Shown: piece after piece, positions 15,020 to 50,312 of the stretch | How the letters are laid out: each line of letters opens with the position of its first letter | Position numbering within the stretch: position 1 is the stretch's first letter | Virus record (IMG/VR): IMGVR_UViG_3300031951_000213 | Location: 1 to 54,403 of that record | Origin: a virus | Taxonomy: Duplodnaviria; Caudoviricetes | DNA: 54,403 bases | Reading direction: 5' to 3' (one strand) | Translations under genes and position numbers: made by a program | Notes under the pieces: generated by a model | The model's input: the letters and a program-made list of their open reading frames with translations, nothing else | Told to the model about the DNA's origin: nothing | The model's database searches: none

Positions 15020-15024
15020 TCGTT

Positions 15025-36112: not shown

Positions 36113-37267
36113 ATGAACCTTCAATCCGTGTACGCAACCGCTCTTGGCGTTATCCCTAAAGAAAAACCAATCCTAAACGAAAAATTCTTCCCCCTCACGG
36201 CGGAAAAGTTCATTCTCATTCACAACGATAACAAGCTGCCCTCGAAATATTACGAGCTTTTCCCCGAAGTTATCTCTCTCCTAAAACCCGTCCTTCACAA
36301 ACTAGGCTATCGAATCTATCAAATTGGCGGCAAAAACGATCCAATCATTGACGGAACAGACGGCCAATTTTTAGGGTTATCATGGGGCCAGACATTTTAT
36401 TTAATGAAGCGAGCGAGTTTGTTCATGGGGATTGATTCCGTGTGCTCCCACATTGCAGCGGCCTATGAAATTCCATCGGTTGTTTTGTTTAGTCACACAT
36501 ATTCTTCTCAGGTGACAACAAACTGGTTGCCCGCCGATAAAAAAATCATTCTAGAGCCTGAATGGGGCAACCGCAAACCCTCCTATCAACCCAACGAGTC
36601 GCCCAAAATGATTCGCACAATTAAGGTTGAGAGGGTTTGTCAAGCAGTTTTCGACCTTCTCTGTAAAGGTGTTCAACTGAACATGAAAACAATTCGTGTC
36701 GGCGAAGATTATTACAATCCCGTAATGGAAATTGTTCCAGACCATTTCCAAGAAAACACCGCTTTAAAAAACGGTTACTTGCATTTCCGAATGGATTTGC
36801 AGCATAACGAACAGTGTTTGTTTCACTGGCTGGCGAACGGCTACAAGGCTCACATTATCGCCAAACAACCCGTAACCCTAGACGGCTTAAAACAGTTTCG
36901 CCCGAACATTGGGCGACTGATTCTAATGGCCAATTCTCTAGAAAGTTTTTCGGCAGAATATCTCAAAGTGGCCAAAAACCTCGGCCTAGACGTATTAATC
37001 TTCTGCGAAAAGAAAGAAATTCTGCCCCAGATGAGAGAAAAGTTCTTCGACTACGTTGTAGAAGAACTAGACTACCCCGAAGAAAAAGAGCTTGACAAAA
37101 TCCCCAAAGACGCTAAATTCTTCACGAAAAAACAAATCATCAGCAACGGCCAAATCTACCCATCAGTGGCTCACTACAAAAGAAACATCCCATTCTCTCG
37201 GGCGAATCAAATTTTAGACAGTCAGGATTTTTGGCTTGACTTTGAGTACTTTTACTTTTACATTTAA
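36113..37267 (+). CDS. GT9 (heptosyltransferase-like) glycosyltransferase with C-terminal extension
   Basis: QIGG, ASLFMGIDSVCSHIAAAYEIPSVVLF. Confidence 0.8.
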   Translation: MNLQSVYATALGVIPKEKPILNEKFFPLTAEKFILIHNDNKLPSKYYELFPEVISLLKPVLHKLGYRIYQIGGKNDPIIDGTDGQFLGLSWGQTFYLMKRASLFMGIDSVCSHIAAAYEIPSVVLFSHTYSSQVTTNWLPADKKIILEPEWGNRKPSYQPNESPKMIRTIKVERVCQAVFDLLCKGVQLNMKTIRVGEDYYNPVMEIVPDHFQENTALKNGYLHFRMDLQHNEQCLFHWLANGYKAHIIAKQPVTLDGLKQFRPNIGRLILMANSLESFSAEYLKVAKNLGLDVLIFCEKKEILPQMREKFFDYVVEELDYPEEKELDKIPKDAKFFTKKQIISNGQIYPSVAHYKRNIPFSRANQILDSQDFWLDFEYFYFYI

Positions 37268-37269
37268 AC

Positions 37270-38058
37270 ATGACAACTGACACAACATCTGCCGCCGAAC
37301 AGCCTGAAACAATCGTTCTTCCTCGAACCTATCCAGAAAATTACCAGAACGGCCCATTCAAACTGAAACGCAACCAGTTTGGGTTGCTTGATAATGTGGA
37401 TTACAAGTTCACGCCAGATGCTTTCGTTGATTGGCGGGCCATGATTAATCCAAAATTCCTCTACCCAAATAAGGGCTGGTTTGAGCGAGCGGGTAAAGAA
37501 GTTCCAACCTCCATCGAAGGATTGGAAGATCATCAACTTCTCTGTAAATTGGGCGGATATAAGGAATTGGCGCGTTTACGCGGGTATTCCAATGTAAATT
37601 ACAAACTAGAATATCTCCCAAATGGAGTTTCGGCTATTTGTTCGATTCATTGGTTGCCTAATTTTGAAACAGATGGCGGTTATGTAAATTTCCAATCAAT
37701 TGCCAATTCCACAAGCGAAAACTGCGGCCCAATGTGTGACCTGTTTAAAGAAACTCAAGCCGAAAATCGGGCGTTTGTTCGCTGCGTTCGCAATTTCTTA
37801 AACATCAACATTGTTGGTGACGATGAAATTTTCAAGGGCAAAAACGCTGTTCACGAAGAACAGGACAACGCCCCAAATGCCTACGATCCGAACTACACTC
37901 TTGAGCAACATGCCAAGAAAAAGTTCAAATCCTTTGACGAATTCAAAAAACATTTCGCGGAACAAAAGTATAAAAAAGTTACTAACGTAACATGGACTAG
38001 CTATAAGGACATTCCCGTAGCTGATTGTCGCAAGTTGATTGAAATTCTCACTGCCTAA
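37270..38058 (+). CDS. hypothetical protein, possible ssDNA-annealing protein
   Basis: LGGYKELARLRG and QAENRAFVRCVR resemble annealase motifs (weak). Confidence 0.5.
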   Translation: MTTDTTSAAEQPETIVLPRTYPENYQNGPFKLKRNQFGLLDNVDYKFTPDAFVDWRAMINPKFLYPNKGWFERAGKEVPTSIEGLEDHQLLCKLGGYKELARLRGYSNVNYKLEYLPNGVSAICSIHWLPNFETDGGYVNFQSIANSTSENCGPMCDLFKETQAENRAFVRCVRNFLNINIVGDDEIFKGKNAVHEEQDNAPNAYDPNYTLEQHAKKKFKSFDEFKKHFAEQKYKKVTNVTWTSYKDIPVADCRKLIEILTA

Positions 38059-38061
38059 AAC

Positions 38062-38325
38062 ATGAAACACTGGAACTTTTTTCCTTGTCTATTGGCACTT
38101 TTGGCCGTTTTTTGGTGGAGATTTGTTGATCTTCGGTTAGAAGAAATAAAAATTGAAGGCACTCGCCCAAAAATCGAAATCCGCTCAATTCAAGACGCGC
38201 CATTTAATTTTGGAGTTCCGCCAATTCCTCAATTAGGTTTGCCGCCCGAAAACACGCCATTTTTTGATCCTCATGCCCCAAACAGTGCGGAAAATGTTAT
38301 CCCTGAAAATAAAACCAAAATTTAA
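38062..38325 (+). CDS. hypothetical protein with N-terminal membrane anchor
   Basis: Hydrophobic N-terminus. Confidence 0.55.
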   Translation: MKHWNFFPCLLALLAVFWWRFVDLRLEEIKIEGTRPKIEIRSIQDAPFNFGVPPIPQLGLPPENTPFFDPHAPNSAENVIPENKTKI

Positions 38326-38327
38326 AA

Positions 38328-38672
38328 ATGCCCACCGACCCAGCTCACCGACAGCCGCCTATCGCCGCTGAAACCACAACCGCCGAACAAACGCCCGCAC
38401 AGCCCGACGCTTGCGGCTGTTCGGTGCAGCGAAATTGTTCTGCCTTGAATTCCACGGACAGCGTTGATGAGGAGGGTTTGAGGCATCTAGCTCCTAAAGG
38501 CGTGAAAAGAATTGCTAATGCTCTGAAAGTGCTATTCGGAAGAAGTATGGCGGTAAGTCTAGTCCCACTGTCACGGGATCAGCTCGAACGACGACTCGTA
38601 AATCTTCATTATGCCCATCGAGAGCGACGAGATACGGTTTTTGAGCGTCTAAAACGATATATTGGTTGGTGA
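38328..38672 (+). CDS. hypothetical protein whose first ~39 codons are an antisense attC site
   Basis: ATG 2 nt after the upstream stop; co-oriented with neighbours; reads through the attC bottom strand. Confidence 0.5.
   Translation: MPTDPAHRQPPIAAETTTAEQTPAQPDACGCSVQRNCSALNSTDSVDEEGLRHLAPKGVKRIANALKVLFGRSMAVSLVPLSRDQLERRLVNLHYAHRERRDTVFERLKRYIGW
38330..38443 (-). mobile_element. attC: integron attC recombination site
   Basis: Minus strand: R'' GCAGAAC, spacer AATTTC, L'' GCT[G]CACC, GA[A]CAGCCGC, variable loop, GCGGCTGTC, L' GGTGAGC, spacer TGGGTC, R' GGTGGGC. Two extrahelical bases at canonical positions; 114 bp. Confidence 0.8.
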
Positions 38673-38829
38673 CGACGATGTTAGAATCGTCCAGAAGAAC
38701 GACAGAACCAATTCTTTTAGTTTCCTCGTTTTCTCTGTAGTAAAGTGGTAGGCGAGTCATAAGATAGGCTAACTTTCTCTTCTATTTCCCCCGCCGAAAA
38801 AATACTGGCGGAGTTGTGGGGGGGGGGTT

Positions 38830-38903
38830 GGCAGAACTCCAGCCCTCCCACCGAGCCTTTGGCGAGGTTGGGTGCGGCAAGTTTCGTGGGAGGCGAGTTA
38901 ATA
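38830..38903. mobile_element. second, degenerate attC-like hairpin
   Basis: GGCAGAAC-TCCAG-CCCTCCCAC...GTGGGAGG-CGA-GTTAATA; AAC/GTT-bounded stem. GGCAGAAC (38830-38837) is the exact complement of GTTCTGCC (38437-38444). Confidence 0.5.
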
Positions 38904-38905
38904 TA
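38897..38905 (+). promoter_or_regulatory. GTTADTATA-class promoter (GTTAATATA)
   Basis: 4 nt before ATG 38910. Confidence 0.55.
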
Positions 38906-38909
38906 ATGC

Positions 38910-39353
38910 ATGGTTAGAAAAATCACTAATCCCGCCGAATACCTAACGCTCCTAGACAATCTTGAAAAGCAGTGGTTTTTTGACAACCAAAATGCGGGGC
39001 ATGTTTTGCCGATTAGCAAAGAAGGTTTAGCAACCCTCGCCAACTCTCAATTACTAACTTGGAATTATCACTGTTGGTCGAATGAAGCATTGGATAGCAT
39101 ATTTTTGGGACAGTCAGGGTTCAATCCGCTGTTCAACCGAACAGCCTTCCAAGAAATGCTTTGGCTATCAAAAACAGGTTACGGCGTGAAATTGTTGAAA
39201 GCGGCGCTTGACTTTGCCAAGTCATATGATACACTAATCATGGGTTCAGTATCGGCCCGAAACAATGACAAACTAAAAAAATTATACCAAAAACTCGGCC
39301 TAAAACAGGACGGCGTTTGTTGGTTAAAACTCCAAAACCCCAAAACACTATGA
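38910..39353 (+). CDS. GNAT-fold acetyltransferase-like protein
   Basis: EMLWLS..GYGVKLLKAA...KLYQKLG. Confidence 0.7.
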   Translation: MVRKITNPAEYLTLLDNLEKQWFFDNQNAGHVLPISKEGLATLANSQLLTWNYHCWSNEALDSIFLGQSGFNPLFNRTAFQEMLWLSKTGYGVKLLKAALDFAKSYDTLIMGSVSARNNDKLKKLYQKLGLKQDGVCWLKLQNPKTL

Positions 39354-39541
39354 CAGAACAACGAAAAAACCAAATCCTCAAATTGGAAGAAGAAAACGGC
39401 GTTTATGGCGTAACTTGCGAATGCTTTGCCTCGATTCTAAAAGAAGATGGCTTTTCCCGCGCCGAAGTTGAGGAATATTATGCCGACGATCCTGAATTTA
39501 TCGAAATGGCAAAACTTGATAGGGTTTTTGACAGAGAATAA
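39350..39541 (+). CDS. hypothetical protein
   Basis: ATGA overlap; start MTEQRK. Confidence 0.6.
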   Translation: MTEQRKNQILKLEEENGVYGVTCECFASILKEDGFSRAEVEEYYADDPEFIEMAKLDRVFDRE

Positions 39542-39542
39542 A

Positions 39543-39737
39543 ATGTGGCCCTTCTCTAAGAAACAGCCAATCTTCCGCGAAATTTCCCGCGAATACCTTG
39601 GATATAAAATGGAGCCATGTATGGGTCGCGGCGGAATGGGAACAGATGTTGACACATTTTCAATTTGGGCCGTTACTCTTGAAGACGTAGAAACGGGCAA
39701 AAGAAAAGTAGAAAAACAATTAAAACTGGAATTCTAA
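39543..39737 (+). CDS. hypothetical protein (resembles 4230-4436)
   Basis: Start MWPFSKK. Confidence 0.65.
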   Translation: MWPFSKKQPIFREISREYLGYKMEPCMGRGGMGTDVDTFSIWAVTLEDVETGKRKVEKQLKLEF

Positions 39738-39738
39738 T

Positions 39739-39903
39739 ATGAACCTAGACTACGAAAAAGTCCTAACCCGCGCCAATCAGTTATACAAAGAAGCAAAGTG
39801 GGAAAAATATCCCCTTTACTATAACGAAGATGATGACTTTGAAATCGAAAGCGATCAGGTCAAGTGTATGCTGAAAGCCTTAATCGAAGAACTAAACAAG
39901 TGA
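39739..39903 (+). CDS. small hypothetical protein (54 aa)
   Basis: Below the track cutoff; MNLDYEKVLTRANQLY...; fills the gap. Confidence 0.6.
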   Translation: MNLDYEKVLTRANQLYKEAKWEKYPLYYNEDDDFEIESDQVKCMLKALIEELNK

Positions 39904-40235
39904 AAACCCTAGACGAACTCCCAACCCTTCTCGATTCCATGATTTCCTCTCAAAAGGAGAAGAAATTAAAAACCTACGTTGCTAAGTATAAAGGCAAAAA
40001 CCTAGTTATGACAAGTGGCAAAAGCTCGTGGAAAGCAATGAATCATGCGAAAGCGGCTGTTTTGAATCATTTTTCATATGAAGAACAAAGATACAAATAT
40101 CCTCCAACAGAAAAATATATTGGAGCAGATGGACGAGAACGCCAAAACTATGACTACTCACAGGCAGAAAAAAGAGAAAAAGAGTTTCGCGCTAAGTTGT
40201 GGGAGCTAGTTGAAATTGTGGAGTTGAAAGACTAA
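39900..40235 (+). CDS. hypothetical protein
   Basis: GTGA overlap start. Confidence 0.65.
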   Translation: MKTLDELPTLLDSMISSQKEKKLKTYVAKYKGKNLVMTSGKSSWKAMNHAKAAVLNHFSYEEQRYKYPPTEKYIGADGRERQNYDYSQAEKREKEFRAKLWELVEIVELKD

Positions 40236-40324
40236 ATAATAAAAACCACACAAACCATCCCCAAAATAACAACTTTCCGCCGAAAATAACGAAAACCCCA
40301 AGAAACGGGCCGAAAATAATAAAA

Positions 40325-41089
40325 ATGCAAGTCCGCCTACTAACAAAAACCATCGGCCTTCACGAATACGAAGGAAAGTCAATCGACGAAATCATCACGG
40401 GCATTGCCCGAATCAGCTCTTCTAGGGAAACGAATGAGCTATTTAATGAACCACACAAACTTCTTAGACATTGCATTAGTAATGGCCATTGGAGCGTTTT
40501 TGGAACATGTAATCTTGGGTTTGAAATCGTGACCAGCAGAGCGATTGGCCGCGAACTTCTCCGACATTGGAGCCTCTCTCCACAGGAATTCTCCCAAAGA
40601 TACAAGGCCGTTTCAGAATTTGAACCTATTGAGATTAGAAAACAGTGCGCGAATAATCGTCAAAGCTCTACGGAAGTTTTTGATCCAAGAGACAATAATA
40701 GGCCGCTTTTAGCGTCAGAAGCTATTGCCTTTAGCTTGAAAATGACAAAAGACCTATATCAAGACTTGCTTCATCAAGGAGTAGCTAAAGAATGCGCCCG
40801 AATGATTCTCCCTGAAACGACTCAAACAACTCTTTATTTTAACGGCAAAATTCGAGATTGGATTACGACGCTTAATCAGCGTCTCCACAAGACGGCCCAA
40901 AAAGAGTGCCGATTGGTAGCAGAAGCGATTCGAGATATTTTTATTCAAGAGTGTCCGATTATCAGTAAAATGCTTTTCAATTTTGAGGATGCATATGATT
41001 GTCACGTTTTGGACAGGGTTCTTCTCGAAAAATACGGCGTTTATCAAATGGTAAAAACAAATGGTTACAAAAAGCTCGCCGCGAGTTAA
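40325..41089 (+). CDS. thyX: FAD-dependent thymidylate synthase
   Basis: ARISS, GHWSVF, RELLRHWSLSPQEFSQRY, NRQSS, KECARMILP, AQKECR. Confidence 0.94.
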   Translation: MQVRLLTKTIGLHEYEGKSIDEIITGIARISSSRETNELFNEPHKLLRHCISNGHWSVFGTCNLGFEIVTSRAIGRELLRHWSLSPQEFSQRYKAVSEFEPIEIRKQCANNRQSSTEVFDPRDNNRPLLASEAIAFSLKMTKDLYQDLLHQGVAKECARMILPETTQTTLYFNGKIRDWITTLNQRLHKTAQKECRLVAEAIRDIFIQECPIISKMLFNFEDAYDCHVLDRVLLEKYGVYQMVKTNGYKKLAAS

Positions 41090-49112: not shown

Positions 49113-50312
49113 GTGAATCATCGCGGTTATAAATTTCGTATCTATCCAGCGCCAGAACAAGAGGCTGTTCTACGCAAAACAATTGGATCGTGCAGATTTG
49201 TCTATAATTGGGCGCTAGCACAGAGAAGAGAGGCGTGGGTTAAAGAGAAGAAATCCATAAACTACGCCAAATCGTGCAAGGCGTTGACGGAGTTAAAAGG
49301 CTCTCCCGAAAAGGCTTGGCTTAATGAAGTGTCGAGCGTTTGCTTGCAGCAAAGTTTGAATAATTTAGATGTTGCGTTCGGCAATTTCTTCAAGAAACGC
49401 GCCGCGTATCCCTCGTTTAAAGCTCGCAAAAATGGCGGTTCTGCGCGGTTCACAGATAACGCTTTCCGCCTAAAAGGCGACTATCTTTTTCTCGCGAAGA
49501 TTAAAACACCCTTTAAAGTCGTTTGGTCGCGCCCGCTTTCCAATATCCCAAATTCAGTAACCGTTTCTCAAAATGCTAGCGGTCAATGGTTTGCCTCATT
49601 CCTATGCGAGGAGGAAATTGCCAAACTTCCGCCTTCCGACAAACGAATCGGTATCGACGCTGGTATTGAAAACTTCGCAACTCTCTCAGACGGGCGAAAA
49701 TTTCAATCTCCGAAAGCGATTCGTAAATTGCGCAAGAAACTAGCACGCCTGCAAAGGCGTCACTCTCGCAAAAAGAAAGGTTCTAAAAACCGTGAACGCG
49801 CCCGCAAAAAAGTTGCCCGTGTTCACCAGCGCATCGCAGATGTGCGCAAAGATTTCCTCCACAAATTGTCAACTCAACTCGTTCGCGAAAACCAAGCGAT
49901 TGCTTTGGAAGACTTGTCTGTGTCAAGTATGGTCAAGAACCGCAAACTTTCTCGCGTAATTAGCGAGCAAGGCTGGCGCGAATTCAGAACTATACTTGAA
50001 TACAAGTGCGAGTGGTATGGGCGAGAACTACTAATCGTAGATCGTTGGTTCCCAAGTAGCAAAACCTGCTCATGTTGTGGAGCGAAGGCTAGCTTTGGCC
50101 TAGAAATAAGGCAATGGACGTGTGGCGCTTGCGGCGCAAGCCACGACAGAGACGTGAACGCCGCGAAAAACATTTTGGCCGCTGGACAAGCGGTGTCAGA
50201 CTGTGGAGTGGACGGAAGACCAACGAAGAACTACGTTCTTCGGGGCAGGACACAACGAAGCAGTAAAACGAAAGCGCGAGCATCGAAAACAACATCTCTT
50301 AAAGATGAATAA
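49113..50312 (+). CDS. tnpB: TnpB RNA-guided endonuclease (IS200/IS605 family), solo
   Basis: YKFRIYP, GSCRFVYN; RuvC GIDAG / LEDL / DRDVNAA all intact; Zn finger CSCC...CGAC. Confidence 0.96.
   Translation: MNHRGYKFRIYPAPEQEAVLRKTIGSCRFVYNWALAQRREAWVKEKKSINYAKSCKALTELKGSPEKAWLNEVSSVCLQQSLNNLDVAFGNFFKKRAAYPSFKARKNGGSARFTDNAFRLKGDYLFLAKIKTPFKVVWSRPLSNIPNSVTVSQNASGQWFASFLCEEEIAKLPPSDKRIGIDAGIENFATLSDGRKFQSPKAIRKLRKKLARLQRRHSRKKKGSKNRERARKKVARVHQRIADVRKDFLHKLSTQLVRENQAIALEDLSVSSMVKNRKLSRVISEQGWREFRTILEYKCEWYGRELLIVDRWFPSSKTCSCCGAKASFGLEIRQWTCGACGASHDRDVNAAKNILAAGQAVSDCGVDGRPTKNYVLRGRTQRSSKTKARASKTTSLKDE

Follow-up and report, generated by a model that had tools for sequence, protein, structure and literature searches.

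How does DNA laid out like an integron gene cassette come to lie, in antisense, between two genes of a tailed phage? This question is raised by positions 38336–38836 of IMG/VR virus record IMGVR_UViG_3300031951_000213, which was analysed whole (54,403 bases, with a CheckV completeness of about 33%) and is referred to here as the window. We consider it likely that this interval is a genuine bacterial integron cassette, lying in a fragment of a cassette array that was captured by the phage and is probably carried as a passenger.

The candidate recombination site that closes the cassette, attC#1, occupies 38330–38443 on the minus strand, and all the letters that the initial annotation had claimed for it, from 38443 to 38330, are present, giving 114 nucleotides (nt) in total. 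Along this strand, the R'' box GCAGAAC (38443->38437) and a 6-nt spacer are followed by the 18-nt L'' arm GCT[G]CACCG[A]ACAGCCGC (38430->38413), a variable loop (38412->38359), the 16-nt L' arm (38358->38343), a second 6-nt spacer and the R' core GGTGGGC (38336->38330). The L'' and L' arms pair in an L-box stem of 16 bp with two single-base bulges five pairs apart, a G opposite 38427 and an A opposite 38420/21. The imperfect inverted repeats R''-L''...L'-R' can fold as a single-strand hairpin, the L-box stem appearing in the centroid fold, with extrahelical bases in L'' and an unpaired central spacer of 6 nt on both sides. In the classical example of an attC the identities of the extrahelical bases differ from the G and A seen here on the top strand. 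Chance does not account for the long bulged stem: it has a helix score of 12, whereas 1000 dinucleotide-preserving shuffles average 6.2 (sd 1.0) and go no higher than 10. A scan of the 54-kb window meets this score at one other place, a 12-bp A+T-rich inverted repeat at 37742–37805, inside the phage gene p262, with a folding z-score of -1.37.

Upstream of attC#1, the same strand carries what is expected of the remainder of a cassette. The unit, of 501 nt, runs from T38836 (after crossover G38837) to crossover G38336, and comprises a 76-nt leader, an open reading frame (ORF) of 81 aa (38760->38515) and, on the same strand, the 114-nt attC. Its first seven nucleotides, TTCTGCC (38830–38836, minus strand), would be the R' remainder of its own attC, and they complement its own R'' (GGCAGAA); with the crossover G included, the minus strand reads GTTCTGCC at 38837->38830, the exact complement of R''. 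An 8-nt complement about 390 nt from R'' could be chance by itself, but it gains meaning because a homologous cassette found elsewhere has the same pairing. The initial annotation had taken this complement as the mark of an integrated cassette, and both the anatomy and the homologue agree with that view.

The homologue came from species genomes: scanning them by alignment turned up a single DNA relative (L045), in a pond metagenome-assembled genome (MAG) labelled Verrucomicrobiaceae, where it sits between two same-strand genes within a cassette array. With both top strands compared by local alignment, positions 38480->38336 of the window and 16647->16504 of the MAG contig L054 (contig C26 of genome G001) are identical in 120 of 150 columns (80%); by blastn, the identity is 79% (E 1.2e-26). 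The alignment begins at 38480, so that it includes a conserved stretch between the ORF and R'' (38445–38480, minus strand), and it stops exactly at the crossover G, the window G38336 standing against the G of G|TTCGCCC in the MAG. Outside the attC region, the two cassettes share the start TTCTGCC and are unrelated beyond those 7 nt.

The array itself consists of 12 units: 10 near-identical 94-nt repeats, one site of a third type, found when those 10 resident repeats were made into a covariance model, and the window-type element. The units lie 481–1354 nt apart, with one gene, always in the same orientation, per interval. On the gene-sense strand, a resident repeat starts with an R'' whose last letters are AAC; after 5 nt comes an L'' in which two bases, G and A, are extra and stand five pairs apart, and then L', a further 5-nt spacer and G|TT. 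The geometry of attC#1 equals that of the 10 resident sites and of the third-type site, and it is homologous to an element that stands at an attC position. In the MAG homologue the G|TT is present and the R box is fully paired, with one bulge; window-type and third-type sites are alike beyond chance (0/500 shuffles). The boundary rule, by which the start of a cassette complements its own R'', also holds in this array. Only one of the 10 resident R' cores reads GTTCTGCC, and it is the one that precedes the cassette with the window-type attC (R'' GGCAGAAC); GTTAGGCC stands before the cassette whose attC is of the third type (R'' GGCCTAAC); five resident cores read GTTCGCCC, the complement of the resident R''; and the imperfect cores include three with an A that mismatches the invariant R'' and one with a G. 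Because array homology, geometry and boundary rule match, we take 38330–38443 as a true, slightly damaged attC, and 38336–38836 as a true cassette. The home organism of the element is not pinned to this MAG, since the window-type element is the odd one out in the array; Verrucomicrobia are among the phyla listed with integrons in the survey by Cury et al. (2016; PMC4889954). Near the end of the same MAG contig, a 64-nt tandem duplication (L054 19773–19844) lies upstream of the first array cassette, each copy ending in GTTAGGCC, and the contig ends about 150 nt further on; this duplication may be the attI region.

The plus strand of the site admits another reading. A 114-aa ORF (38328–38672, plus strand) takes its first 50 or so codons from the bottom strand of attC#1, the remainder being antisense to the 81-aa ORF, and it might be a real phage gene with a conserved N-terminal module of about 45 residues and variable C-terminal parts, in which case the hairpin would be incidental. 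Its start codon lies 2 nt after the stop of the preceding phage gene, p87, as in the neighbouring phage genes, and five proteins share the segment in frame without insertions or deletions, three of them starting within 5 codons of it. However, the partial relatives (P0003, P0004, P0005 and P0007) share residues ~4–50 only, that is, the attC-encoded part, and are otherwise unrelated, and the two invariant blocks of the five-translation alignment are exactly the two stem arms. Nor do the substitutions look like those of a protein: the 40-residue match to P0003 has 30 identities and 30 positives, so that none of the 10 substitutions is conservative. The corresponding frame of the MAG has no start codon close by and is flanked on either side, in the repeat array, by a gene on the opposite strand, and in the window the C-terminal two thirds run antisense over the 81-aa ORF, with no family matched. 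We therefore regard a gene here as highly improbable; the ORF would be a by-product of an attC that is rich in G+C and free of stops. In P0003, P0004 and P0007 an Asn replaces the Thr of the window, which suggests, from the translations only, that their R boxes hold AAC/GTT. Three further, repetitive proteins (P0006, P0008 and P0009) matched elsewhere in the ORF and were discarded for their low complexity, and scores of codon usage could not tell the 114-aa from the 81-aa ORF.

The initial annotation had proposed to look in related phages for the precise absence of ~38336–38836. Four related contigs were compared by blastn: L002, which is the nearest viral contig and the same as L041, and the metagenome contigs L042–L044. 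Positions 37326–38295 and 38919–39298 of the window abut in L002/L041 and in L043, and the same junction is seen in L042 and L044, which start just 69 and 39 nt to its left. Thus, absence was found in all four contigs, with an empty junction after ...GCGGAAAAT, but its limits are not those of the proposed cassette: the missing segment measures 623 bp and spans 38296–38918. Because four related phage contigs lack it, the segment was acquired. In 16 more distant loci, the gene on its right, for a GNAT-like acetyltransferase, directly follows p262, so that DNA was added at this site more than once.

Within the segment, the composition profile shows two patches of 55–63% G+C (38330–38450 and 38790–38900) over a background of about 42%. 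The right 22 nt of the segment (38897–38918) are a phage-type gene leader, and we therefore place the foreign block at ~38330–38896 (about 567 nt, ~55–63% G+C, its ends ambiguous by one G). The left flank is the phage gene p87 (38062–38325, plus strand), whose last 10 codons fall within the 623-bp segment, and the right flank is the acetyltransferase gene (38910–39353, plus strand); in the relatives, a GTG inside p87 is the start codon of this gene. The segment is flanked by an imperfect direct repeat of 11 nt (8/11), at 38287–38297 and 38913–38923, and both copies encode Val-Arg-Lys in the acetyltransferase frame, with different codons.

The insert recurs in public data. Contigs from runs X9 and X10, which are freshwater metagenomes from two different studies, carry 38098–39400 without any difference, and those from X11 show only length variants of a run of ten plus-strand G residues in the cassette leader (38818–38827): one G more at a depth of 4.3 of 22.4, and three fewer at a depth of 4.5 of 22.4, with contigs breaking there. 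An excised or cassette-free joint was not found in the contigs of these three runs, contigs being prone to drop rare variants, and a raw-read run, X21, had no reads over this stretch. The freshwater variants with an identical insert diverge fully to the left of 37867, inside p262, a sign of mosaic recombination in its neighbourhood.

Immediately before the cassette lies a second, attC-like hairpin (attC#2; 38837–38899, minus strand), with an 8-bp stem, CCTCCCAC/GTGGGAGG, and a 34-nt loop; its letters run AACTC..CCTCCCAC..GTGGGAGG..GAGTT within 38835–38899, and there is no extra base in L''. The AAC on its outer side complements the GTT within GTTAATATAA, a phage motif to which we return below. 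Its likeness to attC#1 is borderline (9/500 shuffles), none of 145 genomes holds a homologue, and attC#2 taken together with the cassette leader gave only marginal matches of 20–24 nt in 3 of the 145. This hairpin may be the attC of the cassette before it, truncated at the 5' end. Cury et al. (2016; PMC4889954) describe an attC-site cluster that has no integron integrase (CALIN) as at least two attC sites close together without a nearby integrase. Of the CALIN-like array that had been proposed for the phage, the absence of an integrase stood, as did the presence of a second hairpin bounded by AAC...GTT, whereas the standing of that hairpin as an attC is weak.

A pair of hairpins near the two ends of the segment also invites the thought of some other structured repeat: a G+C-rich hairpin formed by chance, a terminator, or a palindrome of the miniature inverted-repeat transposable element (MITE) or IS200/IS605 type, tied to the TnpB gene that the phage carries at 49113–50312. 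A terminator-like site is indeed called at 38354->38332 on the minus strand. However, such sites are not enriched (3, against 2.8 in shuffles), the two hairpins are unlike each other, and the window holds no second copy (best matches of 14 nt, E 0.1), only the segment itself being matched in the record. Apart from the one array element, dispersed copies of the kind left by a MITE or an IS200/IS605 element are absent from the 401 and 145 genomes, and an array with one gene per repeat that obeys the boundary rule, as in the MAG, is specific to integrons. We thus give this explanation very little credence, and the relation to TnpB/IS605 was dropped after the search for further copies in the window. 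The TnpB gene itself is full-length (plus strand), adjoins tail genes, and has IS605 OrfB, Cas12f-like TNB and HTH domains (E 1e-32 to 1e-20).

Several observations nevertheless weigh against a genuine, captured cassette. As regards attC#1, the R' triplet is GGT and not GTT, only 4 of the 7 R-box positions pair, and the folding energy is unremarkable (z -1.40 on the minus strand, with 23/200 shuffles as good, and z -1.79 on the plus strand). The covariance model built from the resident MAG repeats finds no match at either window site, its best match (10.9 bits, E 1.9) lying elsewhere; this negative says little, because the model also misses the homologous element in its own MAG array and is too sequence-specific for a test of membership. 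The plus-strand frame is open without insertions or deletions in five contexts, as a protein module also would be. As regards attC#2, its 8-bp stem is reached by 26/1000 shuffles, which is only suggestive, its folding z-score is -0.54 (55/200), and its likeness to the window-type, third-type and resident sites of the MAG is not significant (179, 385 and 211 of 500 shuffles, respectively). Convincing copies of the element are confined to this one MAG, among 401 genomes sampled from the phylum and 145 of the family, and the evidence for an integrase in the MAG is a broken fragment on another contig, which matches the integron integrase family best but reaches 91 bits where the cut-off is 265. 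(This integron-integrase-like gene, at L056 12680–13586, on contig C18 of G001, is split by a four-helix-bundle gene, TIGR02436, at the contig end.) In the phage record, TIGR02249, the integron integrase family, has no match in the 54,403 bases, which by the CheckV estimate represent about a third of the genome. Finally, the gap in the relatives reaches past both proposed crossover points, 40 nt further to the left and 82 nt further to the right, and neither outer junction is a canonical G|TT.

These last points bear on how the DNA came in. The simplest reading is the capture of a piece of array by recombination that was not site-specific. The foreign block would be an array fragment made of the 3' part of the preceding hairpin site, the whole cassette, and the 6–7 nt core of the next cassette; it lies, in antisense, between two tailed-phage genes and directly upstream of a phage gene-start motif; and we infer that it entered by illegitimate or short-homology recombination and not by a canonical integrase crossover. 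Since its ORF has no recognisable promoter and its R' triplet is altered to GGT, the cassette would now probably be a passenger, although a host integron integrase might still recognise the hairpin.

Could a host integron integrase instead have inserted one or more cassettes into the phage directly, and could it still excise or exchange them, the site being a working CALIN-like slot? Some features speak for this. The inner limits of the cassette are exact; if a single G is shared at each end, the ambiguity noted above, the foreign block falls exactly between the G and the TT of the phage motif GTTAATATAA, whose GTT agrees with the GWT that integrases are reported to prefer when they insert at genome sites (bioRxiv 10.1101/2022.09.11.507474); and IntI1 recombined five of six phage-borne attC sites with attI1 in the assays of Qi et al. 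(2023; PMC9892861). However, direct insertion needs extra assumptions: (i) the left end of the block does not start with TT; (ii) the orientation of the cassette is opposite to that expected from insertion at a plus-strand G|TT; (iii) about 60 nt of G+C-rich DNA outside the cassette came along; (iv) the R' triplet is GGT and the second site has no extra L'' base; and (v) no joint that skips the cassette occurs in the X9, X10 and X11 contigs, and no integrase was found in the record. At the 3' junction, the letters GTGGGC follow the crossover G, which would be the consensus GTTRRRY core with one T->G change, and the GGT at R' fits neither GTT nor the reported GWT preference. Direct insertion thus appears unlikely to us. 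For the same reasons, namely the missing integrase, the missing excised joint, the GGT at R' and the non-canonical outer junctions, the proposal in the initial annotation that the phage acquires or shuffles genes through a host integron integrase was not demonstrated.

The phage motif deserves attention in this respect. The copy of GTTAATATAA at 38897–38906 (plus strand) ends 3 nt before the start codon of the acetyltransferase gene, and it is one of 16 matches in the window with at most one mismatch, against 4.5 +/- 2.2 expected, a number reached by 0/100 shuffles; six of the 16 stand 3–4 nt ahead of an ORF start, counting ORFs of 56 aa or more. Copies of GTTARTATAA lie at 15024, 23698, 28812, 33822, 38897 and 41085, in addition to 10 further matches, and the motif may be a phage promoter or translation-start signal. 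That it doubles as an integrase landing site, by which cassettes would be delivered directly upstream of phage genes, we hold to be quite improbable; if it were true, integron recombination would drive accessory-gene turnover in this phage lineage. A neighbouring difference between the phages ends at the motif copy at 41085. This is a swap of the ThyX module, in which 39743–41085 of the window, with two small ORFs and a 254-aa ThyX, stands against 5598–6237 of L002, with a different ThyX of 215 aa that is about 30% identical. The window also has about 240 bp more than L002 at 39298–39537, with a 74-aa ORF.

The setting of the captured cassette is otherwise that of a phage. The record encodes tail proteins, a ribonucleotide reductase, ThyX, a DnaB-type helicase, many sugar-modifying enzymes and TnpB, and from 36113 to 41089 all its genes are on the plus strand. 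The cassette is antisense to these neighbours, and its orientation against phage transcription in a record without an integrase had been described correctly. No tyrosine recombinase occurs among the 32 larger ORFs scanned, and an intI gene and attI beside the cassette, which make a complete integron, were not seen. Further searches of the region were of little help: an Rfam scan of 37500–39500 gave only two chance snoRNA matches (E 8–9.4); in blastn of 37000–40500 against phage records only ThyX matched, at 70–74%; the insert had one 27-nt match (E 0.6) and nothing useful among phage sequences, and no match among plasmids; and pattern scans for attC in viral contigs, together with a first scan of genome contigs, returned no matches.

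The cassette ORF (38515–38760, minus strand) is an orphan, in that a homologue search found only the 81-aa protein itself. No Pfam, PHROG or NCBIfam-type family matched it, and PADLOC gave one insignificant match (E 0.03). Two leads, both weak and in part independent, point the same way: its nearest language-model clusters are Trypsin_2 fragments (score 0.94, 168/256 shared features), and all 24 of its 24 sub-threshold PDB matches are to HtrA-family proteases (E 0.14–1.7). The weak likeness is to the His-containing N-terminal part of HtrA/DegS-type proteases, with a Tyr at the aligned catalytic His. Structure models are of low confidence (AlphaFold2 mean predicted local distance difference test score 42; Atlas model 0.41). 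The protein may be a small orphan or a remnant that resembles a protease, probably without catalytic activity, and a mere passenger in the phage. No promoter-like site was found upstream of the ORF on the minus strand, and a scan for promoter-like and terminator-like sites could not demonstrate a promoter or terminator pair for the cassette unit. Phage morons and swaps in hyperplastic regions likewise place a discrete extra gene unit between conserved genes where relatives differ; unlike morons, the unit described here has the anatomy of integron recombination.

Integron parts have been described in phages before, and the cassette reported here adds one more example. Qi et al. (2023; PMC9892861) reported 21 phages with integron components and 17 attC clusters without an integrase, and suggested illegitimate or off-target recombination as the route of entry, which GTT-type boundary motifs may have favoured. 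As in the phage CALINs of that report, we see an attC and a cassette in a phage, no integrase nearby, and GTT-type boundary motifs. In contrast to the cases described there, the phage is an uncultured one from freshwater, with one firm attC, one doubtful, and an altered R' triplet, and what identifies the site is its homologue in a Verrucomicrobiaceae array, together with the empty sites seen in sibling phages, and not IntegronFinder or an IntI1 assay. The cassette resembles those of sedentary chromosomal integrons, as presented by Cury et al. (2016; PMC4889954), in having a small promoterless ORF, followed by an attC with R box, spacer, bulged L box and variable loop, and a start formed by a TT-remainder that complements its own R''; it differs from them in being viral, outside an array, without an integrase, and antisense to the local transcription units. 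With the insertion of cassettes at attG sites (bioRxiv 10.1101/2022.09.11.507474) it shares a position outside att sites and a block whose right end abuts a GTT; however, its 3' junction is G|GT and not G|WT as reported there, and its outer junctions and orientation do not suit a single attC x attG event. What is new is that sibling phages show the empty site, that a bacterial homologue confirms the exact limits of the cassette, and that the setting is freshwater and of Verrucomicrobia type.

What the finding offers is a before-and-after comparison, in which an environmental phage picked up a complete integron cassette and has kept it without change, as seen in freshwater metagenomes that different studies sequenced in different years. 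Any use of integron recombination by the phage itself would go beyond what we observe, and the attC type, that of a Verrucomicrobiaceae array, gives a weak clue to the host or donor. Taken together, the results support the role of phages as carriers of cassettes between bacteria, as proposed by Qi et al. (2023; PMC9892861), and extend this picture to uncultured freshwater phages and to the attC type of a Verrucomicrobiaceae array.

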